The notes under the pieces are model-generated. The model ran no database searches. It was not told the DNA's origin and worked only from the letters and a program-made list of their open reading frames with translations. Shown here piece after piece: positions 15,458 through 39,303 of a DNA stretch of 64,000 nt. Location of the stretch: assembly GCA_040753015.1 (NCBI GenBank), contig JBFMHM010000001.1, positions 275,157 through 339,156 on the forward strand. Reading direction: 5' to 3'. Position 1 is the stretch's first letter. Each line of letters opens with the position of its first letter. The translations under genes were made by a program, and so were the position numbers. The stretch is from Candidatus Omnitrophota bacterium. GTDB lineage: Bacteria > Omnitrophota > Gorgyraeia > Gygaellales > JBFMHM01.

Positions 15458-18400
15458 CTATTTAAAACTAAAAGGCAAGGTCTTTTCTTCTAAAATTGAT
15501 TCCGGCATCACCAATTGATTCTTAGCGCCCATAAAACTTGGAACAGTATTTGCGACAAAAGGATTAAGCTGAGCATCAGCCTGACGGTACGCGCTATATA
15601 TATAATCTCCCCCGCCCACTATAGTATTATTTACAATGAATAACCCTGAATCTTGGGTTACATTTTCAAATTTAAACTTAACAAACGGGTTTGGCCCATC
15701 AGCAGTTAAATTCGCCGAAATTACACCGCTAATAGCATCTTTCCCACCAGCAGAAATAGTTACTGCTTCAACAGTTGTATCAGCATTAGTTACAATCGTT
15801 ATGGGGTTTAATGAATCACCTACTGAACCGCCAAGTGCTGTGAGGCTTATTGTAGGAGAAGTTATAGCAGTTACCCCCGGAGCCAAACCATTTAATATAG
15901 AACCTGGGGAAGTTAAACTAATCCTATCTCCTGACAAAGGAGAAGTAATTGTTTCATTGCCGCCGCCTAGTTTATTTATTGTTAAAGGATTACCAATTAA
16001 TGTGCCATGGCTTAAACCGCCATAATAATTAATTGTGAATGGACCTGTACTCGTAGCGTTTCTAAATGTTGCATTATTACTAGTTGTAGTAATTGATGTC
16101 GGAGGATTTGTTGCACCAACATTTGCTCCAGCATTAAAAGTCAGGCTGCCATTTGCCCCGCAGGTAATTGTAAGCCCAACAAGCCCGTCAACTAATGAAC
16201 TATAAGTTTGGTTTGTTCCGGCTGCAGCAGTAGTTATTGTTACGGCTGCGGTTGATAAAGTGAGTGTATCTGTCGCGGCATTACCAAATGTTAATGCACC
16301 CGCTGAAGTAAGAGTTAAACCATCCAAAGTTATATTTGCATTAAATGTAGAAGCAGTATCACCTGCAGCAATTGTAATATCGTCTTTAAACGTAACTGCT
16401 CCTGCACCATTTGCCTGAGTAATACCGCTCGCAGTTACAAGAGTACTTTCAAAGCTGGTTGTACTGGTTGAGTTAATGATTAAGGCTGCGCCTATTCCAT
16501 CACCAATTGGGGTTACGGAACCAACAGCGGCATTAAAGGTTGAGGTTCCAGTTACCCCCAAAGTAAGATCAAAAGCGCCGTCAATGAGTGAATTAACAAT
16601 TAAATCATCGCCAGCACCTGTTGTATTTATTGTAACAGCTGCTGTAGTAAGATTAACCTGATCTGTTCCGGCATTACCAAAGGTTATGTCACCGCCAGAT
16701 TGAAACGTTAACCCGTCTAAGTTAACAACAGCATTATTCAAAGTTGTTGCTGTATTTCCTGCGGCAATGGTTACATCGCCTTTAAAAGTTATATCCCCTG
16801 CTCCATTTGCAGAAGTAATGCCGCTTGCGGTTGCAAGAGTGCTTTCAAAGCTGGTTGTACCGGTTGAGTTAATGGTTAGGGCCGCACCTGTTCCGTCGCC
16901 AATTGGGGTTGCAGAACCGACTGCATTGTTAAAAGTAGTATTACCTGTTCCGGCTGCTAAAACAAGGTCTACACCTCCATCAACCAGGCCTGTAAAACCA
17001 ATCGTATCATTACTTGAGGTAAATGTTGTTGTTAAAAACCCATTAAGCGTTATAGAATTAGCGGCGCCTGCATTATAAGTTTGCTTATTAGCATTATAAG
17101 TGGTACCATCTAATCTAATCGAAGCAACATCTCCTCCAGCATCGGATCCAGTAATAGTTGTGTCGCCTGTAACGCCTGCACCAGCACCACCAATACTGTT
17201 TACGACAATATCATTACCACTAATAGTTAAAGATGTAACTGCTGTAGTTGCCCCTATCGCACTATTCACTGTAACATCTGCCAACCCAGCAGTTAAAGCA
17301 AATGCCTTGCCGCCGTCAATTGCGCCCGTAAGCGTAATATCTCCATCATTACCGGCTGTATCTGTATCTATTGTTACATCTGCCCCTAAAGTAATATTAG
17401 CAGTGCTGTTTAAGGTTACAGTATTACCCGCAGCATCAGAAGTAGTAATACCGCCATTTAAAGTTAGGGTGGCGCCGGCACTAACATTAACAGTATTTAT
17501 TTCATCAGCATTACCAATTGCTCCAACAGTTGAATTTCCCAGCATATTAGTAATTGTAAAATCTTCAGAACTTGTTCCCCTGACTGTGCCCACCGTAATA
17601 TTGCCGCCTAAAAGCCCCGGGGTAATTGTTAAATCTGAACCATTAGCCAGTGTAATTGTCCCTGTAAAAGTAATATCATCCCCGCTTGAAGTAAATGTTG
17701 TCGCCGCGCCTGCATCCATAGTGATCGCGTTACCAGCTGCGCCAGCATCATAGGTCTGCTGATTTGCAGTATAAGTTGCTCCAGTAAAAGCAATTGACGT
17801 AGTTGCGGTAACTGAAGTTGCGCCGGTTATGCCTTCTGCGATTGCTGTACCAATACTGCCTAAACTTATGCTTTTTGCAGTTATAGTTAAAGCGGAAAGC
17901 GCAGTTGTTGCGCCAATTGCACCAGTAATTGTCACATTACCACTTCCACCGCCGCTTGTAGAATCTAAAGTCAAAGAATTTGTTTCAGCCAAAACACTAT
18001 CTACAGTTCCAGTAATATTTATGGTTGCGCCTGTTGATGTGCCGCCATTAGTTGTATCGAGTGTTACATTAGTATCCAGCTGGACATTATCACTTATGGT
18101 TATTGCCTGTCCTGCAGTAACAATATCAGCATTTAAAACTGTGGTTGCCCCAGAACCATCTAAAGTTACTGATGCATCACCAGATCCGGTAATTTGGCCG
18201 TTTACTGTGATTGTTCCGCCAGAAGGCGAATTTATTGTAATTGGATCGTTGAAAGTAATTGCATTTATTGTTGCCCCACCACTGCCATTACTACGGCCTA
18301 TAGTAATAGAAGCTGCTCCATCTTGTATTTCAGCAATTTCTGCGGCAGTCAAACTAAAATCCCCTGCTCCGCCAGCAATACCAATAGACCTACCAACAGT

Positions 18401-21154
18401 TGAAGGCTGTAATATAACATTACCGGTGCTAGTTATAGTCCCGTCTAAGGCAATCGTATCACAGGTTAAAGTAACGCCGCCGCTTCCTGAAGCAATTGTA
18501 CCTGCGGCAACTGACGTAAAAGACCCTGCGCCAGCATCAATTTCAATAGACGAGCTAGATGCAGCTGTAGAAAACGCTGTATCCAATGTAATTGCAGAAT
18601 TTGAAGCACGAATAACTACAGGATCAGCAAAAGTAATTGTCGCATCGCTATCCTGAATATCTATTGCGCCTGTGCCATCAGTGCGCCCAATTGTGATAGA
18701 ATTAAATTTTCCGCTATTATTAATAAAACCTATAGCCGCTTCAGATAAAGCAAAATTACCAGTTGCATCATCGCCAATGCCAATTGTCCGCGCTGCAGTT
18801 GATGGCTGCAATACCACTGCTCCGCCTCCTGTAGCACTCCAATTAGAATTTAGAGTAAGCGAATCAGCAGTTATTGTAATATCATTTGCGCCAGCACTTA
18901 CTTGGCCTATGGTAGTTGCTGCGGTTCCAGAATTAATTGTAATATCGCTTTTGTCTGCTAAAGTAAGTATTCCACCACTAAATGTAATCGCTACATTTGT
19001 TGTTTGAAATGTTGTTGCCGCGCCTGCGTTAACATTAATCGTGCTGGTAGTATCAGGAAGGCCCCATGTCTGAACACCAACACCTGTTCCAGCATTATAA
19101 ATTGTTCCGGTAAAATTGATTGCATGCGTTTCTGCCATCCTCATCGTACTAACAGTAACGCTATTTGCGCCAAGAGCTATAGCTGTACCAATATTTGCAA
19201 AGGTATATGTTACAGCACCAGCAACTCCCATATCCATCGCGCTAATATTTAAGTTATTTATTGCTGTTGTTGCACCAAGCGCACCGCTAAAAGTAACACT
19301 TCCTCCACCAAGAGTAGTTATTGTTAGGTTCTCTGTACCGGCAGTGCCATCTACAGTGCTATCAAAAGTTACTGCCGCACCGCCTGTAGAACCTGTGCTA
19401 AGCTGTGATGACGCTGTTAAAACTACTGCATTATTAAAATCTATTGCCGCTGTATTTGTCGTAATATTTGCACCTAGATTTATCGTATTTGCCCCACCGC
19501 AAGTTATAGATACTGCCCCTGCTCCATTAAAATCACCTAAATCTGCGCCAATTGTCACTGCGCCAGTATGAGTTATAGTAATAGTACCGACATTTCCTAA
19601 ACCATCATCTGTATCAATTATTCCGCCTGTATTATCAAAGGCAACGCCGGTCGATGTAAAAGTTCCGCCAAGGGTCGTAATAGTTGCATTAATATCTACA
19701 GCTCCGTCACCGCTTGCCGTGCCAAACGCACCGTTAGCATTTAATGCAACATTAAGAGCGCCGGTTGTAGAAGTAATTGTATTATTAATTACTATATCGT
19801 CTGCGGCATTCATGGTTATAGTTGCTGCGCCGCCCGCACTTTTATCAATTGCCGCAGTAACAGTGATATCGCCTTCTTGTGTTCCGCCGTCGGCAGTTGA
19901 AATAATTACACTTGTTCCAGCATTAAGTTGCGCTTCAATAGCTGCTTCACCTATGGTTGAGTTATCAGCATTTGCAGTAAAATTGGGGGCTAGACCATCA
20001 AGGGTGCCTGCTGCTACGGTAATCTCAATATTAAATGGATCTAATAGAAGTATACCGCCTGCGCCATTTTGAGCAGTTGCATTTGTAAGCAAACCTTCAA
20101 TGTAAATTGTATTTGCAGAAAATTCAATTAAACCGCCATTACCAGAAAAAATACTACGTACCTCTACTTTTACATCGCTTACTGCCGCAGAAAAGCCTCC
20201 TTGCATGCTAGAGAGTATTTTTATTGTGCCGGCGTTTGAGTTTTCGCCAAGGCCATTTGCAGTAATTAGACTATTGACTAAGGCAGTTGCTTGCTGGGAG
20301 TTAAAAGTAATTAAACCAGCATCCTGATTAGGTGCGCCGTCAGCATGAATTTCACCTGAATTTAACGCTAAGCCCTCTGCAGCAACTAATCTTATTTGGC
20401 CATTTTCCTCTATTATATGCCCTGCCTCAACTAGAGCGTCATAATTAACTACCTGGCAAATTAAATCCGACACATAATTTTGAGGAATCACTATATCGCT
20501 TGCGTTTTGGTTTAGCTCTGGTATAGCAAATGAAATTATCCCTCTTTGATCAAATGAAATAGTTGTTTGGTTTGTCCCGGCGATAACTACCTGCCCTAAG
20601 TTTGCAACAATTGTCCCTTCGTTTGCAACAAGAGGCGATGCTAAAATACAGTAGCCGTTAGGGTCAACAGTAATTGTGCCGCGATTAATTATATAGCTTG
20701 GATTGTAACCGTCTTTTAAATTAAATTGATAATTACCAGATAAAAAATCATCGTTTGAAATATCTAAGGTTGACGCCATAAACGATCCGCAGTCTATTCT
20801 AGAATTTGGCCCAAAAAATATTCCGTTTGGATTAACTAAAAACACCTGGCCATTTGCGCTTAGCCGGCCTAAGATTTCTGAAGGATTTATCCCTACTACC
20901 CTGTTCAACACTACCGATTGGCTGCTTGGCTGGATAAAATTAACTGATTCAGGTTGAGCAATATTGAAAGAATTATATTCAATGATTGCCTTATTAGAGG
21001 TAGTTACATTCAGAGTATTTGTATCAGGCTGGACAAAAGAGGCGCTTCCAGAAACTACTTGTGCGCCCTCGGGTAAAGCAAAACTGTTAAAAGGTAATCC
21101 TAAAAATAAAGACAGTATTATAAAACAAGCTATTGGGGCCTTAATTATCTTCAT
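15458..21154 (-). CDS. Two-partner-secretion exoprotein TpsA (filamentous haemagglutinin-like adhesin), 1898 aa
   Basis: Signal peptide plus N-terminal TPS/haemagglutination-activity domain (NSFNIAQPESVNFIQP...VVLNRVVG...ILGRLSANGQVFLVNPNGIFFG), followed by a long G/T/A/N-rich beta-helical repeat region with ~110-aa internal tandem repeats. Confidence 0.85.
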   Translation of the reverse strand: MKIIKAPIACFIILSLFLGLPFNSFALPEGAQVVSGSASFVQPDTNTLNVTTSNKAIIEYNSFNIAQPESVNFIQPSSQSVVLNRVVGINPSEILGRLSANGQVFLVNPNGIFFGPNSRIDCGSFMASTLDISNDDFLSGNYQFNLKDGYNPSYIINRGTITVDPNGYCILASPLVANEGTIVANLGQVVIAGTNQTTISFDQRGIISFAIPELNQNASDIVIPQNYVSDLICQVVNYDALVEAGHIIEENGQIRLVAAEGLALNSGEIHADGAPNQDAGLITFNSQQATALVNSLITANGLGENSNAGTIKILSSMQGGFSAAVSDVKVEVRSIFSGNGGLIEFSANTIYIEGLLTNATAQNGAGGILLLDPFNIEITVAAGTLDGLAPNFTANADNSTIGEAAIEAQLNAGTSVIISTADGGTQEGDITVTAAIDKSAGGAATITMNAADDIVINNTITSTTGALNVALNANGAFGTASGDGAVDINATITTLGGTFTSTGVAFDNTGGIIDTDDGLGNVGTITITHTGAVTIGADLGDFNGAGAVSITCGGANTINLGANITTNTAAIDFNNAVVLTASSQLSTGSTGGAAVTFDSTVDGTAGTENLTITTLGGGSVTFSGALGATTAINNLNISAMDMGVAGAVTYTFANIGTAIALGANSVTVSTMRMAETHAINFTGTIYNAGTGVGVQTWGLPDTTSTINVNAGAATTFQTTNVAITFSGGILTLADKSDITINSGTAATTIGQVSAGANDITITADSLTLNSNWSATGGGAVVLQPSTAARTIGIGDDATGNFALSEAAIGFINNSGKFNSITIGRTDGTGAIDIQDSDATITFADPVVIRASNSAITLDTAFSTAASSSSIEIDAGAGSFTSVAAGTIASGSGGVTLTCDTIALDGTITSTGNVILQPSTVGRSIGIAGGAGDFSLTAAEIAEIQDGAASITIGRSNGSGGATINAITFNDPITINSPSGGTITVNGQITGSGDASVTLDGSGATTVLNADIVTAGQAITISDNVQLDTNVTLDTTNGGTSTGATINITGTVDSVLAETNSLTLDSTSGGGSGNVTITGAIGATTALSALTITAKSISLGSIGTAIAEGITGATSVTATTSIAFTGATYTANQQTYDAGAAGNAITMDAGAATTFTSSGDDITFTGTITLANGSDLTITPGLLGGNITVGTVRGTSSEDFTITNMLGNSTVGAIGNADEINTVNVSAGATLTLNGGITTSDAAGNTVTLNSTANITLGADVTIDTDTAGNDGDITLTGAIDGGKAFALTAGLADVTVNSAIGATTAVTSLTISGNDIVVNSIGGAGAGVTGDTTITGSDAGGDVASIRLDGTTYNANKQTYNAGAANSITLNGFLTTTFTSSNDTIGFTGLVDGGVDLVLAAGTGNTTFNNAVGSATPIGDGTGAALTINSTGTTSFESTLATASGITSANGAGDITFKGDVTIAAGNTATTLNNAVVNLDGLTFQSGGDITFGNAGTDQVNLTTAAVTINTTGAGDDLIVNSLIDGAFDLTLGVTGTSTFNAAVGSVTPIGDGIGAALIINSTSTTSFESTLVTASGITQANGAGAVTFKDDITIAAGDTASTFNANITLDGLTLTSAGALTFGNAATDTLTLSTAAVTITTAAAGTNQTYSSLVDGLVGLTITCGANGSLTFNAGANVGATNPPTSITTTSNNATFRNATSTGPFTINYYGGLSHGTLIGNPLTINKLGGGNETITSPLSGDRISLTSPGSILNGLAPGVTAITSPTISLTALGGSVGDSLNPITIVTNADTTVEAVTISAGGKDAISGVISANLTADGPNPFVKFKFENVTQDSGLFIVNNTIVGGGDYIYSAYRQADAQLNPFVANTVPSFMGAKNQLVMPESILEEKTLPFSFK

Positions 21155-21172
21155 GGGGGAATGCCTCCTTTT

Positions 21173-22891
21173 TTAAAATCTCTTAAGTGCTTGCAAATAA
21201 ACCGCTGATTTTGCACCGTCAGAAGAATCATCTCCTCCAACAGGATAACCAACATCTACTCTAAAAGTAAAATCATTGCCGAAATTAAGCCTTGTACCAA
21301 AACCTACGCCAGTAATCTCATCGTGCTTGCTTTCACCGGCCTGAGGATTCCTTAAAAATGTTTTGCCATAATCAACAAACCCAAGAAATTGAATTGTATC
21401 GCGATAAGTCCGCTTAAAAAGTGGAATATTTGCATCAGCAATAAAAGGAAGTGGAAAACGCCATTCAAAAGTAGCGCAATAGCCATAATCGCCTAAATGT
21501 TCTGACTCTGGAAAACCTCTTACCGTATCAGCACCACCTATTGAAAATTGCTCAGGAACGGTCAAAACTCTTGACGCTGTCTGCAAAGAACCTTTTATTA
21601 GAAAATTTGTACCAAAGAAAAATTGTTGAAAACGTGCAAAATCAATATTTCCTTTCACAAATTCACCGCCCGCGCCAACTCTGGAAGCCCTTGGGTCATC
21701 ACGTTTTTTTAAACCACCCATTATATTTGGCACGCCTCCAGAAACCATTAATGAATAATAATTTCTTCCTTGAAAACTATCAACAAAATCTCCAGATAAA
21801 GATGTCTTAAAAACACGCAGCTCATCATCGTTTGATACTGCTCCTAAGAGATAGTTTTTCATCTGTTTGTAATCAAACCCAAATTTAAAATCTGATGTTG
21901 CGGTAAGTGTTCTAATAAGTGGATGGCTAAGCTCTGTAGAATAAATCTTCGATTGGCCGCCGGCATCAAGTGCGCGAAATTCTCTTCGAACATTAAAATC
22001 AGACCAAGTATAATTAAAAGACAGACGGCTGCCAAAACTATCTATTGGCAAACTATAATCTGCATAAGCGAATTTTAAATTTCTCTCTGGTGACCCGCTA
22101 ACACCTCTTAAATATATTTTATCTCCCTGCAATACAGCATTGCTATATTCAAATGTTGCACCGGCTCTTTGGCGGGAAACATAACGTGAGCCGAAATTGT
22201 TATAATCAATGCCGAAATGTACAGGAAATTTATCTGAAATTTTTAGAATAAGGTCTGTAGTATACGGCTTTGCGCCTTTTTGAAGGATAGCTTTTACTTC
22301 TAAATCAGGGTAATCATCTAATACAAGCAGCGTCTTAAGCAAACGGTTATAGTGAATAACACCTTTATAAGTCGGGCGAAAATGATTAATTAGGAATTTT
22401 TTTTTATAAAACTCGTTTCCTTCAACTTTTATTTCACCCAGCCTGCCTTCAATAATTTCAATAATTATAATACCATCTTTGATATCTTGAACAGGTAAAT
22501 ATGCACGGGCTAAAAAATAACCGCGCCTTTTATAGGCATCATTAATTAAATTACATACACCTTTTAATTCCTGTAAACTAAGCTCTTTATTTGTATATTT
22601 TTTAGTTATCTTTTTAAGATAGCCAGTTTTAAAAATTGTGTTTTGGCGAAAATCAAAACTCTTAACAAAAATTTTTTTACCATCGGGAATAGCTAACTCT
22701 TCTTTTGGGATTTCTACCTCTATAGGAGAAGTAGCTGGTTCTTTTTTAAACTTTTTTTCTGCCCTGTCGAGGTCTTTCTCAACCTGCCCTGCTTTTGCAG
22801 CTCCGGGAACTGCCTGAGCAAAACAAATATTTGAACTAATTAAAAGAAAGAATAAAATATAATAAATTCTTTTTTTAAAAAATAAAAACAT
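21173..22891 (-). CDS. TpsB outer-membrane transporter (ShlB/FhaC/HecB family, POTRA + 16-strand barrel)
   Basis: 572 aa with a signal peptide, a POTRA-like N-terminal region and a C-terminal aromatic residue. Lies immediately upstream of tpsA. Confidence 0.8.
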   Translation of the reverse strand: MFLFFKKRIYYILFFLLISSNICFAQAVPGAAKAGQVEKDLDRAEKKFKKEPATSPIEVEIPKEELAIPDGKKIFVKSFDFRQNTIFKTGYLKKITKKYTNKELSLQELKGVCNLINDAYKRRGYFLARAYLPVQDIKDGIIIIEIIEGRLGEIKVEGNEFYKKKFLINHFRPTYKGVIHYNRLLKTLLVLDDYPDLEVKAILQKGAKPYTTDLILKISDKFPVHFGIDYNNFGSRYVSRQRAGATFEYSNAVLQGDKIYLRGVSGSPERNLKFAYADYSLPIDSFGSRLSFNYTWSDFNVRREFRALDAGGQSKIYSTELSHPLIRTLTATSDFKFGFDYKQMKNYLLGAVSNDDELRVFKTSLSGDFVDSFQGRNYYSLMVSGGVPNIMGGLKKRDDPRASRVGAGGEFVKGNIDFARFQQFFFGTNFLIKGSLQTASRVLTVPEQFSIGGADTVRGFPESEHLGDYGYCATFEWRFPLPFIADANIPLFKRTYRDTIQFLGFVDYGKTFLRNPQAGESKHDEITGVGFGTRLNFGNDFTFRVDVGYPVGGDDSSDGAKSAVYLQALKRF

Positions 22892-29508: not shown

Positions 29509-31109
29509 AACCTTGCGTTTAAAGTCATCCCACTGTCAATTTCGCGGACTGAAAATCCGCCGCCTTTACGCCAATTTTTATTAACATTAAGATAGGTTTT
29601 TAATGTCAATGTATCCCAGAGCCTATAATTAAAATCGAACCCCCCTCTTTGATTCAAAGTATTTGCATCAACTGCTTGGCGCTGACTGGCTTGGAAACTA
29701 TAATTAAATCTTCCGGTAAATTTAGAACCAACAGTGAAATCAAAATTAAAAGCTACGTTATTAGTCCTATCTATTCTATCAAAAGGAGAAGAATAGAATT
29801 CCCGAATATAAGTATAATTTAAACCAGGTGTATAGGAAAAATCTGGAAAAGAAAAACGATAAGATATTCCTGCAGTACCAGTGTTAACAATATTATTGTT
29901 TGTTCCAGCATAATCACCAAATTTCCGGTAATTATACCCCCAATTCCAAGAAAAATCCCCCACATAGTCAGAAACAGTTATATCTGCTGTATGCGTTCGA
30001 TTATCCGTTGTGCGTAAAGTTGAACGCTGCCAGCGAAAATCATAACGCGGGTTTATAGTAAAACTTCTTCTGTCTTTAATAGGTATAATTCTAAAAGCAA
30101 TCGAAGGATTTCTGGTATTTGTCGCCTCTTGGCCAGGAATTTTATCCAAATTATCATGGTATGTCATATAATTAAATGTTGTTGAAAAGCGCGAATTATT
30201 AAATAACCTCAACGTATACTGATACATCTCTTGGTCTATCGTTGCCGAACCAGAATCAGTCATAAAATTTGGGTCAATACGATGGAACCTAAAAGAAAAA
30301 CCAACTGGGTCTTTATCATAATCTGCCCCGGCTTTAATAGCATTGCCTAAGCGATGGCCATCAATAGTCACTGTGTTATTATCACGGGCAAAACTTCTGG
30401 CAAATTCGCTGGTAAGTTTAAGATTATCAAAAACCTGCAACTCTTGATCTAAACTCCAAACATAGTTACGAAGCCCGGTAGCATTTTGTTCCATTTCTTT
30501 AATTGTACCAGTATCATCAATATTGTAAACAAAATTTGCACCTAACTTTAAATCGTTTATCCAAGCGCCGTCTCGAATCACCTGATAATTCGCCCGCTGG
30601 CCTAAAACATAACGCATATATGTTGGATTTGGAATAGTTGTATCGCGCCGGCCAACACGAGATAGGACTGTATTCAAAGTAACCCTATCAAAAGTCGAAT
30701 CAACTGAAACACCTTCTAGCGAGCGAGACAGGGTTAAATCGGTAAAATTAGAATAGATATCTCCAATCTGTATATCAAATGTATCATTGCGTGTTTCAAT
30801 CAACCATGAAAGAAGCCGTACGCTATTATGGTTGGGGTCAATTTCATCATCATCTGTTTTTCTAAGCTGCATCTGAAAACTAGATATCCAGCCGTCCTGA
30901 AATTGCTTCGCAGCAGATAACCCTAATTCTGTCAACGAATGCCAGCCAGGCTCCTTAAAAGATAAACTACGATTGCCAGTAACATTTTCGTATTTTACTG
31001 TCTGCAGCAAGTCTATATCAACAGGCAAATTCCATACATCAACCGCCAAAGCATTAGCAGGTATAAAAATGATAATGATTAATATTAATTTATATAAATT
31101 TCTTTTCAT
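29505..31109 (-). CDS. Outer-membrane beta-barrel protein (534 aa)
   Basis: Signal peptide, alternating amphipathic beta-strand pattern rich in Y/F/N/R/D, C-terminal ...TLNARF (terminal Phe). Confidence 0.55.
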   Translation of the reverse strand: MKRNLYKLILIIIIFIPANALAVDVWNLPVDIDLLQTVKYENVTGNRSLSFKEPGWHSLTELGLSAAKQFQDGWISSFQMQLRKTDDDEIDPNHNSVRLLSWLIETRNDTFDIQIGDIYSNFTDLTLSRSLEGVSVDSTFDRVTLNTVLSRVGRRDTTIPNPTYMRYVLGQRANYQVIRDGAWINDLKLGANFVYNIDDTGTIKEMEQNATGLRNYVWSLDQELQVFDNLKLTSEFARSFARDNNTVTIDGHRLGNAIKAGADYDKDPVGFSFRFHRIDPNFMTDSGSATIDQEMYQYTLRLFNNSRFSTTFNYMTYHDNLDKIPGQEATNTRNPSIAFRIIPIKDRRSFTINPRYDFRWQRSTLRTTDNRTHTADITVSDYVGDFSWNWGYNYRKFGDYAGTNNNIVNTGTAGISYRFSFPDFSYTPGLNYTYIREFYSSPFDRIDRTNNVAFNFDFTVGSKFTGRFNYSFQASQRQAVDANTLNQRGGFDFNYRLWDTLTLKTYLNVNKNWRKGGGFSVREIDSGMTLNARF

Positions 31110-31151
31110 TTTATTATATTATAAAAAATATATATATTAAGTCAAGAATAA

Positions 31152-32972
31152 TCAGAATTGAACTTCTATTTCAAAATTTTCTTCTTGTTTAGCTAATGAA
31201 GTAGGAAATGGGGCAAAAGGGGATATTTTTTTAATGCTCGAGATAATTATCTCTTCTAATGCTTTATTTGAAGATTTTATTATGGCTGGGGTATCTTTTA
31301 ACCTGCCATCATCTGCTAATACGAAACTTACTTTTACAGTGCCGCATAAATTTTTGTCTAAAGAATTTTTACTCAAAAAATTAATTAAAGAATTTTTTAT
31401 ATAATTATAATAGTCTAATTTTCCTGCCTGCCACCCTAAAGGACTTACCTTATTAATTGTTTCTCTTCCGATAGCAACTTCTTTATTTTGTATTATGCTC
31501 ATAGGAACAACGATGTCATCATTCTTTAACGATGCCTCCTTGCCGGATGAATCACCGGAAATAATATGTGGCGTTAAAAATACTATAACCTCTTTTTTTT
31601 GCGGCTCTTTATTAACCTTTTTAAATAAATTACCTAATAACGGAATATCACATAGTATCGGAATTTGTGTATATGTAACCTTATCAGTTGTATCGATTAA
31701 CCCTGCAATTACAATTGTTACGCCGTCTTTTACCATGACGCTGGTTTCGGTTTCAGATGCCTCAATTATAGGAATTTTATTGCCTGATGCCGTGGTTAAA
31801 TCCCTTGGGGCAGAACTAACCTCTGGCCTAATTTTCATTGTTACAAATCCAAGATTATTTACAACCGGCGTTACATATAGTTTAACACCTACATCTATAA
31901 ATGAAACACTCTCTGCTGTTAATGAAGAACTGGTTGTCTGGCTAACTGTCTGCGTAACATATGGCTTAGTTGTGCCAACAAGTATTTTAGCCTCCTGGCC
32001 GCTAATCGTTGTAATTCTCGGCGCGGACAAAAGATTAGTCTTGCCAATAGTTTCAAGCGCGCTTACAACTGCAGTGTAACTCGATGCCCCTGCAGCAATA
32101 CCAATAACAGTTTTTCCACTGGTTAAAAAATTCTGAATTAACCTTGTCTGTACTTCGGCCTTGCTTAGTATAAAATCCCAGTCAATACCAAGGGCGTATT
32201 CCTTAGTCAAATGAACCTGTACAATTTTTGCATCGATCAAAACTTCTTTCGTCTTTTCATCTAAAGCAGAAATAATATTATCAATATTTTTAATTTTACT
32301 TTTTAAGTCCGTTATGAAAATTTTATTTGTCCTTTCGTCTATCTCAATCATGCCGATACCTTTAGTTATATGCGCCTCTAGCTTAGTTTTTACTTCTCCC
32401 GCTTTAGCAAAATTTAAAGGATATATTTTTGTTTCTGTCGGTAAATCCAGCTCTTCAATTAATCCTGACATTTCATTAATTTTTGCTGCCACATCAATTA
32501 AAACGAGTGAATTTGTCGGCTGATCTATTATTACCCTGCCTAAGCTCGACTTCATCTGATTTAAAATATTCACAACTTGATCAGCCTTAGCATATTTTAA
32601 TTTTATTGACTTAGCTTGTGTCCTGTCTTTATGCCTTTGGCCGTATAATAATTCATAATCACGCTGGCTCATCACAGTAATGATATTATCCTTAATGTCA
32701 TAAGCAAGGCCGTTCGCTGATAAAATCGTCTCAAATGCATCAAATGCTGGTACATCTTTTAAAAATATCGTAACTTTACCCTGAATATCTCTTGCTGCAA
32801 CAATATTCATCCCCGTCTTCTGCGATAAAAGTTTTAATACATCAAGAATGTCCATATTGCGAAGATCAAGTGAGATCTTTTGTTGTATATCAGCTAAACT
32901 AATTTTTAAATAAACCATCGAGAAAAAAACTAGAAAAACAATTATTATTCTTAAAACCTTTTTATAAAACAA
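31152..32972 (-). CDS. Secretin (GspD/PilQ family) with a C-terminal TonB/TolA-C-like domain
   Basis: STN/secretin-N motifs (LDVLKLLSQKTGMNIVAARDIQGKVTIFLKDVPAFDAFETIL; IYPLNFAKAGEVKTKLEAH). Secretin C domain (LLSAPRITTISGQEAKILVGTTKPY...SFIDVGVKLYVTPVVNNLGFVTMKIRPEVSS...TSVMVKDGVTIVIAGLI...IPLLGNLFK). Final ~100 aa: GTVKVSFVLADDGRLKDTPAIIKSSNKALEEIIISSIKKISPFAPFP, a TonB_C-like pattern. Confidence 0.75.
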   Translation of the reverse strand: MFYKKVLRIIIVFLVFFSMVYLKISLADIQQKISLDLRNMDILDVLKLLSQKTGMNIVAARDIQGKVTIFLKDVPAFDAFETILSANGLAYDIKDNIITVMSQRDYELLYGQRHKDRTQAKSIKLKYAKADQVVNILNQMKSSLGRVIIDQPTNSLVLIDVAAKINEMSGLIEELDLPTETKIYPLNFAKAGEVKTKLEAHITKGIGMIEIDERTNKIFITDLKSKIKNIDNIISALDEKTKEVLIDAKIVQVHLTKEYALGIDWDFILSKAEVQTRLIQNFLTSGKTVIGIAAGASSYTAVVSALETIGKTNLLSAPRITTISGQEAKILVGTTKPYVTQTVSQTTSSSLTAESVSFIDVGVKLYVTPVVNNLGFVTMKIRPEVSSAPRDLTTASGNKIPIIEASETETSVMVKDGVTIVIAGLIDTTDKVTYTQIPILCDIPLLGNLFKKVNKEPQKKEVIVFLTPHIISGDSSGKEASLKNDDIVVPMSIIQNKEVAIGRETINKVSPLGWQAGKLDYYNYIKNSLINFLSKNSLDKNLCGTVKVSFVLADDGRLKDTPAIIKSSNKALEEIIISSIKKISPFAPFPTSLAKQEENFEIEVQF

Positions 32973-33501
32973 GCTGCGCCTCCTGTCCGTTGGACTCTAA
33001 AATTACTTTATCTTCTTTGATATCTTTTATTTTTATGCCTAAAAATGTCTCGCCTTTATGAACGAAATAAGTCTTGTTCGTATTTCTATCCTCTATAATC
33101 GCTTCATTAACAGCAATTATACCTACTAAATTAAATTGTGATAACATTCTATTAATAAAAATTTCGCTTGGCTGGCCTTTGGATGTTTGAAGATTTTCCT
33201 CCTTAGCCTCTTGATTTTCTATAGCAAAAATATCCTTATCGATATTTAAAGTTAGATGTTGAAGAGGTAGCTCTTTGCTATCTTCTTTTTTTTCAACAAG
33301 CACAACCTCTTTATCTTGAGGTTGTTTTATAAATATGTTAAAGATTAAATAAGCACAAAGAAAGATAATAAAAATAATCAAAACTGTATTTAATAAAAAA
33401 CTAAAATTGGGCTTAGTTTTTATTTTTTGCCTATTTAGCGGGCTCGTATCCGCCTTAATTATCTTTAAAAGTTTTTCTTCGGGAGTAATATTTTTATTCA
33501 T
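32962..33501 (-). CDS. PilP/GspC-like secretin-interacting inner-membrane protein
   Basis: 179 aa, single TM, C-terminal domain LVGIIAVNEAIIEDRNTNKTYFVHKGETFLGIKIKDIKEDKVILESNGQEAQLVL. Confidence 0.4.
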   Translation of the reverse strand: MNKNITPEEKLLKIIKADTSPLNRQKIKTKPNFSFLLNTVLIIFIIFLCAYLIFNIFIKQPQDKEVVLVEKKEDSKELPLQHLTLNIDKDIFAIENQEAKEENLQTSKGQPSEIFINRMLSQFNLVGIIAVNEAIIEDRNTNKTYFVHKGETFLGIKIKDIKEDKVILESNGQEAQLVL

Positions 33502-34303
33502 TTTCTGATATAACTTCTTCGATTAAATTACGGTCAATAAAATTTTTATCTTGGCTAACTGCTAGCCTAAGCGCATCATGACAAATACAATTAATTTGAC
33601 GCGGATATCCTTGAGTATGGAGATAGATCAAATTAACCGCACTATCAGAAAATAACAATTTATTAGCATATCCTGCTTCTTTAAGCCGGAATTCAATCAT
33701 TTCCTTTGTCTGCATTTCGTCAAATGGATTAATTGTATATTTTAAACTTATGCGATCAAAAAAATTACGGACTTTTTTAAGCCGCGGCAAAATCTCAAGC
33801 TGAGATAAAATTACAAGCTGAAGCATCTTGTACTCGTTTGTTTCATAATTTAAAAGCACGCGCAAGATTTCTAAAAAATCCGGCGTGAGTTTTTGCCCTT
33901 CATCAATCATAAGAATAATAGTTTTATTATCTTCTACTGTCTGTCGATATAAATATCTTTCTAACGCTTCTTTATAATCAAGAGTAGAGTTAAATTGAGT
34001 TTGAATATCAAAAATTTTTATTAGATATGAAAGAAATTGATACTCGCTTTTAAAACTAGGGTCTAGAATTAAGTGAAAAACGAAATTATTTTCTTTAGCG
34101 AAATTCTGTAATAGTATCCTGCTTAAGGTGGTTTTTCCTGTACCGACATCGCCTAAAATAAGGCTTAAGCCACGGCGCAGACGGATTGAAATTTCTAAAC
34201 GGTTAAGCGCGGAAAAATGATCCTTTGAGCGGTAAAAAAACTGCGGGTCTGGGCTAGTAGAAAATGGCTCTTTATTTAAACCAAGAATTTTATAATAACT
34301 CAT
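33494..34303 (-). CDS. ExeA/GspA/MshM-family AAA ATPase
   Basis: 269 aa, Walker A LILGDVGTGKTTL, ExeA-like profile. Confidence 0.65.
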   Translation of the reverse strand: MSYYKILGLNKEPFSTSPDPQFFYRSKDHFSALNRLEISIRLRRGLSLILGDVGTGKTTLSRILLQNFAKENNFVFHLILDPSFKSEYQFLSYLIKIFDIQTQFNSTLDYKEALERYLYRQTVEDNKTIILMIDEGQKLTPDFLEILRVLLNYETNEYKMLQLVILSQLEILPRLKKVRNFFDRISLKYTINPFDEMQTKEMIEFRLKEAGYANKLLFSDSAVNLIYLHTQGYPRQINCICHDALRLAVSQDKNFIDRNLIEEVISENE

Positions 34304-34553
34304 CTTTTATTTCTTTAATTGATTTGCCTTTACGCCGTAATTCTCGAATTAGCTTAAGTAGGCTTAATGTACCTTGATTAAAATAACGATAATTTGAACC
34401 AAAGCTACGGCCTGCTTCTTTTATCAGGCCAATCTTTAGGTAGAATTTTATTGTATGAAGCGAATACCCACTCTCTCTTGCTAAATCTTTAATTAAATAT
34501 AATATATTTACTTTATTATTCATCCGCTCTCTACCTAGAGAGTAATTGTACAC
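34290..34553 (-). CDS. MerR-like helix-turn-helix regulator (87 aa)
   Basis: LIKDLARESGYSLHTIKFYLKIGLI is a MerR-type HTH. Confidence 0.45.
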   Translation of the reverse strand: MYNYSLGRERMNNKVNILYLIKDLARESGYSLHTIKFYLKIGLIKEAGRSFGSNYRYFNQGTLSLLKLIRELRRKGKSIKEIKDELL

Positions 34554-34585: not shown

Positions 34586-35515
34586 TTATTTGCAGCGAAA
34601 ATAACTAATTGTTTTGCTAAGACCCGTTATAAGGCCGACTTTTGGCTGCCAATTTAGAAGTTTTTTTGCCAAAGCTATATTTGGACAGCGGACTTTGGGA
34701 TCATCCTGAGGAAGAGGCAAATATTTAAGTTTACTTTTTGATTCGGGAATAAGTTTTAGGATACTCTTAGCAAAATCTAAAACTGTCATTTCAACAGGAT
34801 TACCTAAATTTATCGGCAAATTATAATTACAGTTCATTACATAATAAATCCCCTCTACTAAATCATCTATATAACAAAAACTTCGCGTCTGACTACCTTT
34901 TCCGTAAATAGTCAGTGGTTTATTTTTTAATGCCTGGCTAATAAAGTTTGGCACAACCCTGCCATCATCTACCTGCATCCTTGGCCCATAGGTGTTAAAA
35001 ATCCGAATGATTCTTGTATTAACTTTATGCACCCTGTGATAAGCCATAGTAATACTTTCGGCAAAGCGCTTTGCTTCATCATAACAGCCGCGCGGGCCAA
35101 CGCAATTTACATTACCGTAATAGTTTTCATTTTGCGGATGAATTTTTGGGTCGCCATAAACTTCGGAAGTTGACGCAAGCAAAAATTTAGCCTTCTTAGT
35201 TTTTGCAATACCTAATGCATTGTGTGTACCTAAAGAACCTACCTTCAAAGTCTGAATAGGATGCTCTAAATAATCCTTAGGGCTTGCGGGAGAGGCAAAA
35301 TGCAAAACAAAATCAATTTTTTTATCGATATTTATTGGCTTTGAAACATCATGCTTGATAAATTTAAAGCGCTTATTATTTAAAGCATTTTTTATATTAT
35401 CTAAACTTCCTGTAATTAAATTATCTACACAAATAACCTTATGATTTTTAGCTAACAAAAATTCACAAAGATGCGAACCAATAAATCCTGCCCCGCCAGT
35501 AACCAATATTATCAT
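34586..35515 (-). CDS. uxs: UDP-glucuronate decarboxylase (UDP-xylose synthase, SDR family)
   Basis: 309 aa with [10 protein letters not shown], YxxxK (YDEAKRFAE) and a UXS-like profile. Confidence 0.75.
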
Positions 35516-35626: not shown

Positions 35627-36580
35627 TTATTGGCATTTTTGTTTAAACCAATCTACGGTCATTTTTAATCCTTGCTCAAAGTTTACCGTCGGCTGCCAAC
35701 CAATTATTTTTTTTGCTTTTGCAATCGAGGCAAGCGTTTTCTCTACGTCTCCAGGGCGTTTATCAATAAACACCGGTTTAATTTTCTTTTGCATAATTTT
35801 ATTTAAAGCTCGTACTAAATTAAGAATCGTATTATCAAATCCAACACCGATATTAAAAACATCTCCTAGTAATCTTTTCTTCGATAAAGCACATTCAATA
35901 TTAGCGCTTACGACATTATCGATAAAAGTAAAATCCCTGGATTGCCTGCCTGTACCATGAATCGTTGGCTGTTGATCATTAAGCATCATAGTGATAAATT
36001 TCGGCACAACTACAGCATATTCATCATCTATACCTTGGCGCGGCCCAAAAACATTAAAATACCTTAAACAAGCCGTTTCTAAACCATAATTCATGCTAAA
36101 AATTCGGCAATAATACTCCCCTGCCAACTTTGTTAATGCATAAGGAGAAATTAAAAGCGGAGCATCTGTTTCCCTCTCAGGAAATTTATTACTTTCTCCA
36201 TAAACTGAGCTAGAAGAAGCAAAAACTAGCCGCTTAACTTTATTTTTTAATGCGGCATTTAAAATATTTAATGTTCCGTCAATATTTACTTCATTGTACT
36301 CTGCTGGATTTTCTAGTGATTTTGGCACTGAACGAAGCGCTGCCTGATGTAAGATAAAATCAACCCCTTTAGCCGCATTTAAACAATCATTTGTATTACG
36401 AATATCGCCCTTGATTAGTTCGAAAACTCTTCGGTTCGCTGGTTCTTCAGTAAAAAACAAGTTATCAATTTTTCCGGAAGAAAAATTGTCAAGAACACGC
36501 ACAAAATGGCCTTGTTTTAAAAGTTTTTCGGTAATATGCGACCCGATAAATCCCGCCCCGCCAGTAACCAAAAATCTCAT
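35627..36580 (-). CDS. NAD-dependent UDP-sugar 4-epimerase (WbpP/TviC-like)
   Basis: 317 aa with [19 protein letters not shown] (YxxxK) and a Vi-polysaccharide-epimerase-like profile. Confidence 0.7.
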   Translation of the reverse strand: MRFLVTGGAGFIGSHITEKLLKQGHFVRVLDNFSSGKIDNLFFTEEPANRRVFELIKGDIRNTNDCLNAAKGVDFILHQAALRSVPKSLENPAEYNEVNIDGTLNILNAALKNKVKRLVFASSSSVYGESNKFPERETDAPLLISPYALTKLAGEYYCRIFSMNYGLETACLRYFNVFGPRQGIDDEYAVVVPKFITMMLNDQQPTIHGTGRQSRDFTFIDNVVSANIECALSKKRLLGDVFNIGVGFDNTILNLVRALNKIMQKKIKPVFIDKRPGDVEKTLASIAKAKKIIGWQPTVNFEQGLKMTVDWFKQKCQ

Positions 36581-39303
36581 AGCCTTACTACCCTGTTATT
36601 GGATTGTTTATAAACATTACAGGTGTCAAAGATAAATTTAGAATTGCCTAAAATAAATTCATAATCTAAATTAGAATGGTTTGAAACAATTATTATACAA
36701 TCAAATGAATTTAAAAATGCTTTTCCTAGATCGGAACTTTTTAAGTCAATATTTTTAAATTTTAGAAATGGAATCAACGGATCATGGTAGAAAACTTTGG
36801 CTTTCTTAAGCTGCAGATATTTAATTATATCTAAACTGGCTGCCTTACGTAGATCGATTACATCCTTCTTATAAGTTACGCCTATAAGCAATATCTTTGC
36901 ATTTTTTATTTTTTTATTGCGTCTTACTAATTCCTCTTCAACGCGCTGGCATATATATTCTGGCATATATGAATTTATATCCGCGGCTAGCTTTATAAAT
37001 TTTGATTTAAAACCATAATGCTTTGCCTTCCAAAATAAGTATAAAGGATCTTTGGGAATACAATTATGGACGGCTATACCAAAAGATGTAACAAAAGAAT
37101 GCGGTTTTTCAGTTTCAATTGAATAAACTAAATCTGATTTATCAAAAGAAATCTCTTTAACTTCCGTTGTTGCAAAACCATCATGCCTAATGAATGTTTT
37201 ATTTATTGGCCGATTTTTGTTCAATTCTAGATATCTTAAAATAATTTCTTTCTTTTTACCATCAAAAATATCTTTAAAAAACTCTATTTGTCCATAGCCA
37301 AAAATATTCAAAGCATACTTTCTTCTCTTGAACGTAGGAATAATATCTAGATCATGCAAAAGCAATATTAATTGTTGAAATAATTTTTTACTTGAAGTGA
37401 AATAAGATATGTTTGCGGTGTTAACCTTATGGAAATATTCTTTTTGATTTTTACGATAATGCCATTTGCCAAAAAAATGTTCGACACAAGCATCTCCTCT
37501 AAAAATACCTGCTAATAACGCAATTTTTTTATCTTTATCTAGGCTATACATTTTATCCGGTATCGCCATTGAATAACAATCTTTACCGCAATTTAGAATA
37601 TCGCCTATCAAAATTCCAAAAACATTAGAAGAAACTTTGATACAACTTGTATGCCATTTTTTTGACTCATATATAGAATATCTCAATGATATTTTTTTAA
37701 CTATAGCACAAACATCTTCGATATATTCTTTTTCGCTGCGATTAAAACTAAATCTAACCCTATAAGACTTATCTTTTGTCAAGCAACCCTCGCTTAAATA
37801 ATAACCAATAAGCCTGCAAAAATCCTCATCTAGATCGATAACTGCGTTAATTTCACTATAAGACGGCCCGCGGCCACTGCAAATTAATAAATCTCGATGT
37901 TGTATTTTAATAAAATTATCTAATTCATAAAAATATTTCAAAGGTAGAATATTATATTTTATATAATAATCGAATGCTGGCGGCGTCTTGCCATTATTTT
38001 TTTCTTGTAAAATTTTCTTTAATTCAACTCTATAAATTGACCAGAGAAAGTTTTTTGGCTTAATACGCAGCTTATCGATAAACTCTCTTTCTTTACTTTT
38101 AATTTCACTGATTAAATCAACACTGTTGTCATTTGGCCGACAATCATCAAATTTTGGTAATTTCATAAAAAGAGGAAGCCTGTCTCCTTTTTGTAGGTCT
38201 TTCGCATACTTTAATTCCCAAGTATTATTGTAAACAAACATTGGATGCCTATCCGTAACCTTAAGCAATCTGCCATCCTGCGTCTTAATATTAACCATTG
38301 TTCCGCTATAAGGCCTAACAGCTGCTGCTGTAATATTTTTAAAACATGTTTTTCTTTTTATTGGATCGAAAGATAAAACTTTAACATTATCTGCTGGATC
38401 ATTATTAATATGCTCAACAAGGCTGGATATAGGCATAGTTTTCAGCTTATTTTCTTCTTTGACAAAGACTAGTTCATTTTTATCTAAACAATGCCCACCA
38501 ACTCCAGAGCTAGGATAAAAAGGCATAAAACCAAAAGGCTTTGTCTTTGCCGCCTCAATTACCTCCCATACATCTATGCCCATTCTGTGAGCCATAATTG
38601 CAAGCTCATTAATCAAACTTATGTTTATTAACCTAAAAGTGTTCTCTAAAAGCTTAACTGTTTCTGCTGCCCGGCTCGATGAAACAAGATGAACCTTCAC
38701 TACTATATTTTCATAAAGCAGTTTAGTTAGCTCTCCCGATTCCTTTGTAATACCGCCAACGATTTTAGGTATTTTTTTTAGCGGAAAATTAGCATTTCCT
38801 GGATCAATACGCTCTGGCGAAAAAGCTAGATAAAAATCACTTCCGCACTTTAATCCACTTTGTTGCAATATTGGCAAAATAAGCTCATCAGTTGTCCCCG
38901 GATATGTCGTGCTCTCTAAAACTATCAACTGCCCTTTATGTAAATATTTTGCAATCTGCTTTACAGCCGCAAGGATATATGAAACATTGGGTTGATACTT
39001 TCCTTTTAACGGGGTCGGCACGCAAATAATTATAATATCAGCATCGTTTAGAATTGAAAAATTATTTGTGGGAAATAATTTTTTATTCCCTATAACAAGC
39101 TCTAAGTCTTTTTTTTCTACATCCAATATATAACGTTGTGCATTTTTTGCTTTCTCTACCCTGTCACGATCGGAATCAATCCCAAAAACACAAAACCCCT
39201 TTTTTGCAAATTCAACAGCTAGAGGCAAGCCAACATAGCCTAAACCAATCACAGCTATCTTTGCATCTTTACTTATAATTTTTTCTTTAATAGTTAAGCT
39301 CAT
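36577..39303 (-). CDS. UDP-N-acetyl-sugar 6-dehydrogenase (TviB/WbpO-like) interrupted by an intein (908 aa precursor, ~432 aa exteins)
   Basis: N-extein GLGYVGLP...VGG|H-C(intein). C-extein resumes CIPKDPLY..., restoring the GGHCIPKD catalytic motif. Confidence 0.85.
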   Translation of the reverse strand: MSLTIKEKIISKDAKIAVIGLGYVGLPLAVEFAKKGFCVFGIDSDRDRVEKAKNAQRYILDVEKKDLELVIGNKKLFPTNNFSILNDADIIIICVPTPLKGKYQPNVSYILAAVKQIAKYLHKGQLIVLESTTYPGTTDELILPILQQSGLKCGSDFYLAFSPERIDPGNANFPLKKIPKIVGGITKESGELTKLLYENIVVKVHLVSSSRAAETVKLLENTFRLINISLINELAIMAHRMGIDVWEVIEAAKTKPFGFMPFYPSSGVGGHCLDKNELVFVKEENKLKTMPISSLVEHINNDPADNVKVLSFDPIKRKTCFKNITAAAVRPYSGTMVNIKTQDGRLLKVTDRHPMFVYNNTWELKYAKDLQKGDRLPLFMKLPKFDDCRPNDNSVDLISEIKSKEREFIDKLRIKPKNFLWSIYRVELKKILQEKNNGKTPPAFDYYIKYNILPLKYFYELDNFIKIQHRDLLICSGRGPSYSEINAVIDLDEDFCRLIGYYLSEGCLTKDKSYRVRFSFNRSEKEYIEDVCAIVKKISLRYSIYESKKWHTSCIKVSSNVFGILIGDILNCGKDCYSMAIPDKMYSLDKDKKIALLAGIFRGDACVEHFFGKWHYRKNQKEYFHKVNTANISYFTSSKKLFQQLILLLHDLDIIPTFKRRKYALNIFGYGQIEFFKDIFDGKKKEIILRYLELNKNRPINKTFIRHDGFATTEVKEISFDKSDLVYSIETEKPHSFVTSFGIAVHNCIPKDPLYLFWKAKHYGFKSKFIKLAADINSYMPEYICQRVEEELVRRNKKIKNAKILLIGVTYKKDVIDLRKAASLDIIKYLQLKKAKVFYHDPLIPFLKFKNIDLKSSDLGKAFLNSFDCIIIVSNHSNLDYEFILGNSKFIFDTCNVYKQSNNRVVRL
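37063..38490 (-). mobile_element. Intein (476 aa) with LAGLIDADG homing-endonuclease domain inside the UDP-sugar dehydrogenase
   Basis: Begins CLDKNELVFV and ends ...GIAVHN followed by +1 Cys. Two LAGLIDADG-like motifs (LIGYYLSEGCL, IALLAGIFRGDACV). Confidence 0.8.

Follow-up and report, generated by a model that had tools for sequence, protein, structure and literature searches.

A 64,000-nucleotide stretch of contig JBFMHM010000001.1 from a Candidatus Omnitrophota bacterium (hereafter the window) carries a gene for a nucleoside diphosphate (NDP)-sugar 6-dehydrogenase that is split directly before its catalytic cysteine by an insert, very probably a class-1 intein of the known "udp" allele family (Table 1). 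An earlier note on this DNA, made from the sequence alone, had placed a 476-residue excision at window positions 37063-38490, within a 908-residue precursor, and the list of open reading frames (ORFs) and the junctions match these values exactly. The 2.7-kb precursor ORF is uninterrupted, with neither stop nor frameshift, and its junctions read GVGGH/C(LDKNELV...) and (...GIAVHN)/C(IPKD), where slashes mark the splice points. In silico excision gave a 432-residue protein with a contiguous GGHCIPKD (GVGGH/CIPKDP restored), in line with the claim of the same note that deletion recreates a GGxCxPKD motif. Three UDPG_MGDP_dh Pfam domains (N-terminal, central and C-terminal) flank the insert, and the spliced product aligns without gaps to PDB 4r16 and shares 79% identity with an intein-free orthologue on a metagenomic contig (L081, described below). 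All sub-features were confirmed by re-translation at their coordinates. A six-frame scan of the window with a hidden Markov model built from the intein family found one copy, this intein, and no second. The insert is confirmed as real, far beyond chance.

Table 1. Features of the intein-bearing dehydrogenase gene and of other loci in the window.
Feature	Position	Strand	Basis
Precursor gene, 908-residue NDP-sugar 6-dehydrogenase split by intein	36577..39303	-	Single ORF; Pfam
N-extein, residues 1-271, ending ...FYPSSGVGGH; NAD-binding domain and most of central domain	38491..39303	-	Junctions, Pfam, re-translation
Intein, 476 residues, precursor residues 272-747; Hint splicing domain split by LAGLIDADG endonuclease domain	37063..38490	-	Junctions, profiles, AlphaFold, Foldseek, published udp inteins
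C-extein, residues 748-908 and stop; end of central domain and UDP-binding domain	36577..37062	-	Junctions, Pfam, re-translation
+1 Cys, first C-extein residue; predicted splice nucleophile and catalytic thiol (GGxCxxxD)	37060..37062	-	Junctions; alignment with GVGGHCLPKDP of PDB 4r16
Cys1, block A nucleophile for N-S acyl shift	38488..38490	-	Invariant in 79/79; re-translation
Block B TDRH (T79, H82)	38245..38256	-	H82 invariant, T79 = T or S in 79/79; re-translation
LAGLIDADG endonuclease core, intein residues 215-400	37291..37848	-	Most conserved region; deleted in mini-inteins P0035, P0039, P0041
LAGLIDADG motif 1, FCRLIGYYLSEGC, catalytic E234	37783..37821	-	E in 79/79; aligned to PI-PkoII motif LLGYYVSEG
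LAGLIDADG motif 2, IALLAGIFRGDAC, catalytic D333, A334	37486..37524	-	D in 79/79; G at 334 in 71/78 relatives
Blocks F and G, DLVYSIETEKPHSFVTSFGIAVHN, penultimate H475, terminal N476	37063..37134	-	TIGR01443 above cut-off; H475, N476 invariant in 79/79
ugd, intein-free paralogue, UDP-glucose 6-dehydrogenase, TuaD-like; directly upstream, 4-base overlap with precursor start codon	39300..40589	-	ORF list, Pfam, NCBIfam
SDR epimerase, downstream, same operon	35627..36580	-	Best NCBIfam match TviC-like, below cut-off; synteny L001-L006, L024, L081
Second downstream SDR, sugar 4,6-dehydratase/UDP-xylose-synthase type, same operon	34586..35515	-	NCBIfam; no equivalog cut-off reached
Small ORF with MerR-type helix-turn-helix look	34290..34553	-	Judged by eye
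ShlB/FhaC-type transporter with POTRA domain	21173..22891	-	
1898-residue protein, sole Pfam match N-terminal two-partner secretion domain	15458..21154	-	

The profile matches of the insert are those of an intein that carries an endonuclease. It scored 52.7 bits against Pfam Intein_splicing (PF14890; cut-off 35.8) and 41.2 bits, over two stretches, against LAGLIDADG_3 (PF14528; cut-off 22.5). The NCBIfam models for the two intein ends were likewise exceeded (intein_Nterm, TIGR01445, 42.3 versus 24.5; intein_Cterm, TIGR01443, 25.6 versus 15.6). Further NCBIfam matches were to models of intein-containing proteins (PolII, Tes, RtcB and RNA-polymerase A''), within their intein portions. An AlphaFold2 model of the intein, built on eight allelic inteins, reached a mean predicted local distance difference test score of 87.6 and a predicted template modelling (TM) score of 0.88. 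Foldseek ranked PI-PkoII first among PDB entries (2cw7; E 1.3e-25, TM score 0.68), followed by the TliVMA and PhoVMA inteins, PI-PfuI and PI-SceI, with mini-inteins and free LAGLIDADG enzymes (I-DmoI, I-Tsp061I and I-OnuI variants) lower in the order; these matches give the model a pseudo-dimeric alpha-beta-beta-alpha-beta-beta-alpha endonuclease fold. PI-PkoII is also the nearest solved structure by sequence (E 1e-10), with both LAGLIDADG motifs in register. The full class-1 residue set is present (C1, T79/H82, H475-N476 and C+1), and C1, H82, E234, D333, H475 and N476 are invariant in all 79 aligned family members. By sequence and predicted Hint fold, the element classes as a class-1 intein, and profiles, predicted structure and homology to published inteins together bear out the original description of an intein with a LAGLIDADG homing endonuclease. 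A bacterial intein-like (BIL) domain was considered and rejected. BIL domains are Hint domains in variable sites of hypervariable proteins, usually without a C-terminal Asn/+1 nucleophile pair and without an endonuclease; the insert interrupts the best-conserved motif of an enzyme of housekeeping type and has both HN/C and an endonuclease.

Inteins at this position have been catalogued before. UDP-glucose dehydrogenase was already an InBase intein host in a 2010 review, and Soucy et al. (2014) named an allele "udp" in UDP-glucose 6-dehydrogenase, listing as hosts seven Halobacteria, six other Euryarchaeota including M. jannaschii (NP_248048.1), and two bacteria, Dictyoglomus thermophilum and a Fervidibacteria/EM19 genome (PMC4071816). 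We took the published intein sequences from the supplementary alignment of that study and compared them with the window intein by BLASTP. The udp intein of D. thermophilum was 39% identical (E 9e-82), followed by those of T. gammatolerans (35%; E 2e-81), EM19/Fervidibacteria (31%; E 5e-68), M. jannaschii (30%; E 5e-39) and Halorubrum (28%; E 6e-51). All five alignments reach the C-terminus; four begin at residue 1 and that of Dictyoglomus at residue 59, running to 476. The related archaeal family of UDP-glucose dehydrogenase inteins that the first reading had anticipated is thereby confirmed. The insertion point is also shared: Halorubrum precursors, of a third subfamily (Ugd type), read ...VHN/CFPKD and are split before the same catalytic Cys (PMC4071816 supplement), and 73 loci from GTDB genomes read GGH/C...HN/C, with M. 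jannaschii represented by its intein sequence alone. Collectively, these data indicate, with a probability of about 0.88, that the window element belongs to the "udp" allele family, which entered the catalogues as the M. jannaschii UDP-glucose dehydrogenase intein, and is a canonical class-1 member of it. Its kind was known before, the allele family having been described in both Archaea and Bacteria; what is new is this copy and, within the literature searched, the phylum Omnitrophota. Literature searches on intein plus MJ1054, on inteins in Omnitrophota and on catalytic-cysteine insertion sites in dehydrogenases returned no relevant paper.

The family proved widespread. A protein search with the intein alone recovered 42 allelic inteins in metagenome dehydrogenases, with Omnitrophota, Chloroflexi, Nanoarchaeota, Desulfobacterales, Blastocatellia and Gemmataceae among the source names. 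In a scan of one genome per GTDB species, a relative was encoded in at least 161 genomes, and 80 of the 161 were kept for locus analysis. Looked up by exact sequence in an assembly index, the 908-residue precursor itself had no match. An intact in-frame precursor with GGH/C and HN/C-I-x-x-DP junctions and an intein of 456-520 residues was present in 73 of these 80 loci. The nearest kept relatives (58-61% identity) are in nine metagenome-assembled genomes (MAGs), seven labelled Candidatus Omnitrophota and two labelled uncultured Planctomycetales. Other bacterial hosts belong to Planctomycetia, Anaerolineae, Aquificales, Desulfobacterales, cyanobacteria, Acidobacteriota, Eisenbacteria, Gemmatimonadota and bacteria of the candidate phyla radiation, and archaeal hosts include Woesearchaeota, Nanoarchaeia, Bathyarchaeia, Micrarchaeota and Methanosarcinales. 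Two host subfamilies occur among the kept loci, with junctions PFYPGPGVGGHC/IPxDP and PGLVGGHC/IGVDPYY. A profile search of 1.84 billion cluster representatives returned 307 proteins at E<=1e-30, typically of 880-940 residues with the intein at about residue 270. In a quick neighbour-joining tree, inteins of one phylum and host subfamily mostly cluster together, some neighbours come from different domains, such as Methanosarcinales beside Desulfobacterales, and the window copy is the earliest branch of the Omnitrophota clade. Public but unpublished copies in Omnitrophota MAGs (L001-L009, e.g. JAQURC010000002.1) share with it the operon LptD-ugd-dehydrogenase-epimerase-SDR (short-chain dehydrogenase/reductase), the CIPKDP junction and an intein of 476-480 residues, and differ in sequence, with 58-61% intein and 56-63% extein identity to the window copy.

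Such recurrence bears on the thought that the gene is an artefact of assembly or annotation, whether a chimeric contig or the false joining of a free-standing endonuclease gene to the dehydrogenase. Nothing beyond the metagenomic look of the sequence speaks for this. Exactly the same in-frame junctions occur in 73 independent genomes, one of them the complete Desulfonema magnum chromosome, and the Hint halves flank the endonuclease within one polypeptide; on these grounds an assembly chimera and a free-standing endonuclease were rejected, and we give the idea almost no credence.

Several individual loci deserve mention. Desulfonema magnum 4be13 (L045; NZ_CP061800.1:4656446-4665747) is a cultured organism with a complete genome and a 520-residue udp intein in a CIGVDPYY-type dehydrogenase. 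An Acidobacteriota MAG (L077; CAWDDA010000024.1) has its N- and C-junctions in different frames, a frameshift that reflects either a decaying precursor or a sequencing error, and two loci (L066, L079) are without the standard C-junction motif. One NCBI product of 647 residues, named "UDP binding domain-containing protein" (P0006), begins inside the intein; a locus on a contig of equal length and identical organism label (L014; JAUYPJ010000098.1) has the full precursor ORF intact in frame (320 + 484 + 164 residues). Many other database entries likewise start within the intein, and annotation pipelines appear to truncate such precursors. Finally, the strongest non-allelic relatives (P0197, P0211, P0212, P0215, P0234 and P0247; E 1e-117 to 1e-57) carry the intein at about residue 135-157 of proteins of about 1200 residues, with a C-junction THN/C(I/V)GVPT. 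Their N-termini (...W/SEHCxYK...) resemble PurL/FGAM synthase by motif recognition alone. These sequences suggest that the same intein lineage has moved into another host gene.

The Gly-Gly-x-Cys-x-x-x-Asp turn of these dehydrogenases supplies the catalytic thiol and the general base, Cys260 and Asp264 in S. pyogenes (PMC4794789). The insertion lies exactly at this Cys, as first described: the intein directly precedes it, and this residue would therefore serve as the +1 splice nucleophile. Before splicing, the motif is interrupted between His271 and the catalytic Cys, and by sequence the active site of the precursor cannot be intact. Once spliced, the extein exceeds the cut-off of the general NDP-sugar dehydrogenase model TIGR03026 (420 bits versus 189.8) and falls below every NCBIfam equivalog cut-off (archaeal UDP-N-acetylmannosamine (UDP-ManNAc) dehydrogenase 280/750, TviB 232/592, WecC 229/459). 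Among solved structures it is closest to the P. horikoshii UDP-ManNAcA dehydrogenase 4r16 and to S. aureus Cap5O, and its alignment to 4r16 is unbroken across GVGGHC(I/L)PKDP. The junction motif of the window protein is CIPKDPLY, not the CIGVDPYY of the other intein-bearing subfamily, which we take to be the TviB/WbpO/Cap5O motif. The label "TviB/WbpO-like" given to the enzyme at first was thus a reasonable functional guess and only loosely right, membership of that type not being demonstrated given the missed TviB cut-off (232 versus 592) and the lack of CIGVDPYY. A Lys preceding the Asp is typical of non-UDP-ManNAc dehydrogenases (PMC4794789). Close orthologues are named UDP-N-acetyl-D-glucosamine dehydrogenase in their source records, and the host is an NDP-sugar 6-dehydrogenase, probably with UDP-N-acetylglucosamine (UDP-GlcNAc) as substrate.

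We propose a maturation pathway that follows the standard scheme. The gene would be translated as a precursor of ~103 kDa, in which Cys1 would carry out an N-S acyl shift, the +1 Cys, the enzyme's own catalytic thiol, would attack the resulting thioester, and cyclisation of Asn476, with His475 assisting, would free the intein. An S-N shift would then create the native bond GGH-CIPKD, yielding an active 432-residue dehydrogenase and a free 476-residue intein. Through its central domain, a two-motif LAGLIDADG endonuclease (catalytic E234, D333), the latter would cut intein-less alleles at ...GVGGH/CIPKDP... DNA, and repair of the cut allele would copy the intein in (homing).

Intein-free and endonuclease-free states of the same site occur in related genes. 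A 12.4-kb contig from Logan ERR15087771 (L081; 4891-6210) carries an intein-free dehydrogenase allele of 439 residues. This gene corresponds to the closest extein relative found (P0051, ~80% identical), and the contig is fully syntenic with the window (ROK-LptD-ugd-dehydrogenase-epimerase-SDR). Because the neighbours are 69-83% identical to those in the window, L081 is judged to be from the same kind of organism. Its amino-acid sequence across the site, FYPSSGVGGHCIPKDPLYL, is identical, and the candidate intein-less target DNA is TTTTATCCTAGCTCTGGAGTTGGTGGGCATTGTATTCCCAAAGATCCTTTATACTTATTTTGG as the spliced junction of the window and TTTTATCCAAGTAGCGGTGTTGGTGGTCATTGCATACCAAAAGATCCATTGTATCTCTATTGG in L081. 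The best 120 extein matches listed were all intein-free by length and Pfam content. Mini-inteins of 175-190 residues occupy the same catalytic-Cys site in three proteins of the same host subfamily from metagenome contigs of 3-22 kb (P0035, P0039, P0041). Compared by BLAST, which returned two segments where global alignment misplaced the C-terminal half, they keep residues 1 to ~135 and ~415 to 476 and are without ~136-414, that is, the whole endonuclease. Mini-inteins thus resemble the window intein in their junctions and in sequence (52-54% identity over Hint-N, 62-71% over Hint-C) and differ in that the endonuclease is gone; they could presumably splice, not home. With full inteins of L001-L009 in LptD-ugd-dehydrogenase-epimerase synteny, full, mini and empty states are all found in related operons. 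This set of alleles fits the prediction of the homing cycle and would be consistent with a cycle that is ongoing.

The neighbouring ugd gene had been offered as an intein-free internal control. It is indeed intein-free, which shows that the endonuclease has not colonised this paralogue in this genome. It is nevertheless a weak control, since its protein shares no more than 26% identity with the spliced extein and its site DNA matches at 33/63 positions, versus 47/63 for the empty allele of L081. The proper intein-less allele is the L081 sequence or a synthetic spliced junction.

Four observations weigh against reading the window copy as a fully competent mobile intein. First, the block F position that is Asp in many inteins is Ser here. 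This residue could point to a splicing-defective insertion, the dehydrogenase copy then being a dead gene. However, Ser is found in 78 of 79 family members, and is therefore a trait of the family rather than a sign of decay. Moreover, C1, T79, H82, H475, N476 and C+1 are all intact, the long ORF remains open, the exteins are as similar to the intein-free orthologue (79%) as are the neighbouring genes, and the same intact arrangement recurs in 73 genomes. A splicing-defective insertion is accordingly very improbable, and it is highly likely, from conservation of the splicing residues, that this copy splices.

The remaining three observations concern the endonuclease. A334 follows the catalytic D333 in motif 2 (RGDA) where 71 of 78 relatives have Gly (RGDG), the sole non-conservative departure of this copy from conserved positions. 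The composition of the intein (GC 0.299; GC at third codon positions, GC3, 0.229) is near that of the exteins (0.336; 0.275) and of the 34 other genes of the window (averages 0.359 and 0.273), and such proximity to the host indicates long residence, not recent arrival. The intein GC3 equals the lowest of the 34 other genes, and the C-extein is nearly as AT-rich; as a sign of recent transfer GC and GC3 give a weak signal and were not used as evidence. Lastly, intein and extein identities run in parallel within Omnitrophota (58-61% versus 56-63%), which is compatible with mostly vertical descent. A resident intein with intact splicing and a dead endonuclease, inherited only vertically and en route to a mini-intein, would account for the largely ameliorated composition, the tracking identities and G334A beside the catalytic Asp, and the mini-inteins at the same site in related genes indicate that endonuclease loss does happen in the lineage. 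We consider this course of events possible. Set against it is the conservation of the endonuclease core, which has 69% mean identity to the Omnitrophota clade, versus 56% for Hint-N and 41% for the linker, so that the domain appears from sequence to be under purifying selection. Every one of the 79 aligned members has both E234 and D333, and the window copy departs from only 2 of 43 positions conserved at >=90% (L203I and G334A), the median per sequence being 1. The empty site in close relatives would also be expected under continuing gain and loss. I-SceI, an active enzyme, has GDA in its first motif, so A334 need not be disqualifying. On balance we lean slightly towards an endonuclease that is still active in this copy. 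The earlier wording, "probably an active or recently active" endonuclease, stands as plausible on account of the invariant acidic residues and the highly conserved core, and is not proven.

The position of the insertion also invites the idea of regulated splicing, in which a disulfide between Cys1 and the +1 Cys would form under oxidation and act as a post-translational switch on the active dehydrogenase, and hence on a UDP-GlcNAcA-type surface sugar. Redox-trapped intein precursors are known elsewhere, for example the Pab PolII and MoaA inteins. Both junction residues are Cys, the +1 Cys is a redox-sensitive catalytic thiol, and the homologous Cys of S. aureus Cap5O forms a disulfide on oxidation (PMC4794789). 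Against this, no sequence feature sets the window intein apart from ordinary Cys1/Cys+1 inteins, and the existence of close relatives without an intein argues against an indispensable regulatory role. We regard redox-gated splicing as unlikely. Equally doubtful is a broader speculation that the udp intein is more than a passenger: an endonuclease targeting DNA that codes for the universally conserved GGxCxxxD turn would have let it jump repeatedly among CFPKD, CIPxDP and CIGVDPYY dehydrogenases and between Bacteria and Archaea, with redox-conditional maturation via Cys1/Cys+1 added in lineages like Omnitrophota. If true, it would place a post-translational switch on the synthesis of acidic cell-surface sugars.

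For annotation, the gene is best treated as a single precursor that yields a normal 432-residue dehydrogenase. Full intein, mini-inteins and empty site form a natural series, within a single phylum and a conserved operon, that suits study of the homing cycle; L081 puts a natural intein-less target sequence in hand, and D. magnum is a practical organism for in-vivo splicing work on the udp family. Furthermore, the catalytic-Cys site is seen to be occupied in three dehydrogenase paralogue types and in both prokaryotic domains.

The gene lies in an operon of conserved order, consisting of a ROK kinase, an LptD-like protein, ugd, the intein-bearing dehydrogenase, a TviC-like epimerase and a second SDR. 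The epimerase, a 317-residue SDR, has TviC as its best match but is below the cut-off (233 bits versus 760). The minus strand carries nearly all long ORFs of the window. The sugar-nucleotide operon is followed downstream (29505-34553, minus strand) by the MerR-type helix-turn-helix-like ORF, an ATPase, a secretin and a 534-residue protein. The ATPase resembles the XrtA/PEP-CTERM-associated ATPase at 179 bits, below the cut-off of 324.5; the secretin is of PilQ/GspD type; and the 534-residue protein had no NCBIfam or Pfam match. Further along the same strand is a two-partner secretion pair (15458-22891). Scans of the whole window (1-64000) found no tRNA gene and, at gathering score, no Rfam family.

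Comparison with characterized relatives places the element within known diversity. The M. jannaschii/udp allele (NP_248048.1, 454 residues) likewise resides in a UDP-glucose/GDP-mannose dehydrogenase, starts with Cys and ends with HN, and aligns end to end through Hint-N, linker, two LAGLIDADG motifs (IGYYLSEG..., ...LFRGDG...) and Hint-C. Differences are the modest identity to published udp members (28-39%), the host, a CIPKDP paralogue in the window versus the CFPKD, Ugd-type enzyme of Halorubrum, and the phylum, Omnitrophota being absent from the two bacteria listed in PMC4071816. With PI-PkoII (2cw7), PI-PfuI (1dq3) and PI-SceI (1vde) the element shares the two-domain fold (Foldseek E 1.3e-25 to 1e-11) and acidic residues in register; it differs from them in sequence (12-15% identity) and host, these three residing in a DNA polymerase, a ribonucleotide reductase and a V-ATPase, and sequence does not allow a comparison of target DNA or of additional DNA-binding regions. 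Current understanding of inteins is unchanged by this copy, which is an apparently healthy, ordinary udp member in a new host lineage.

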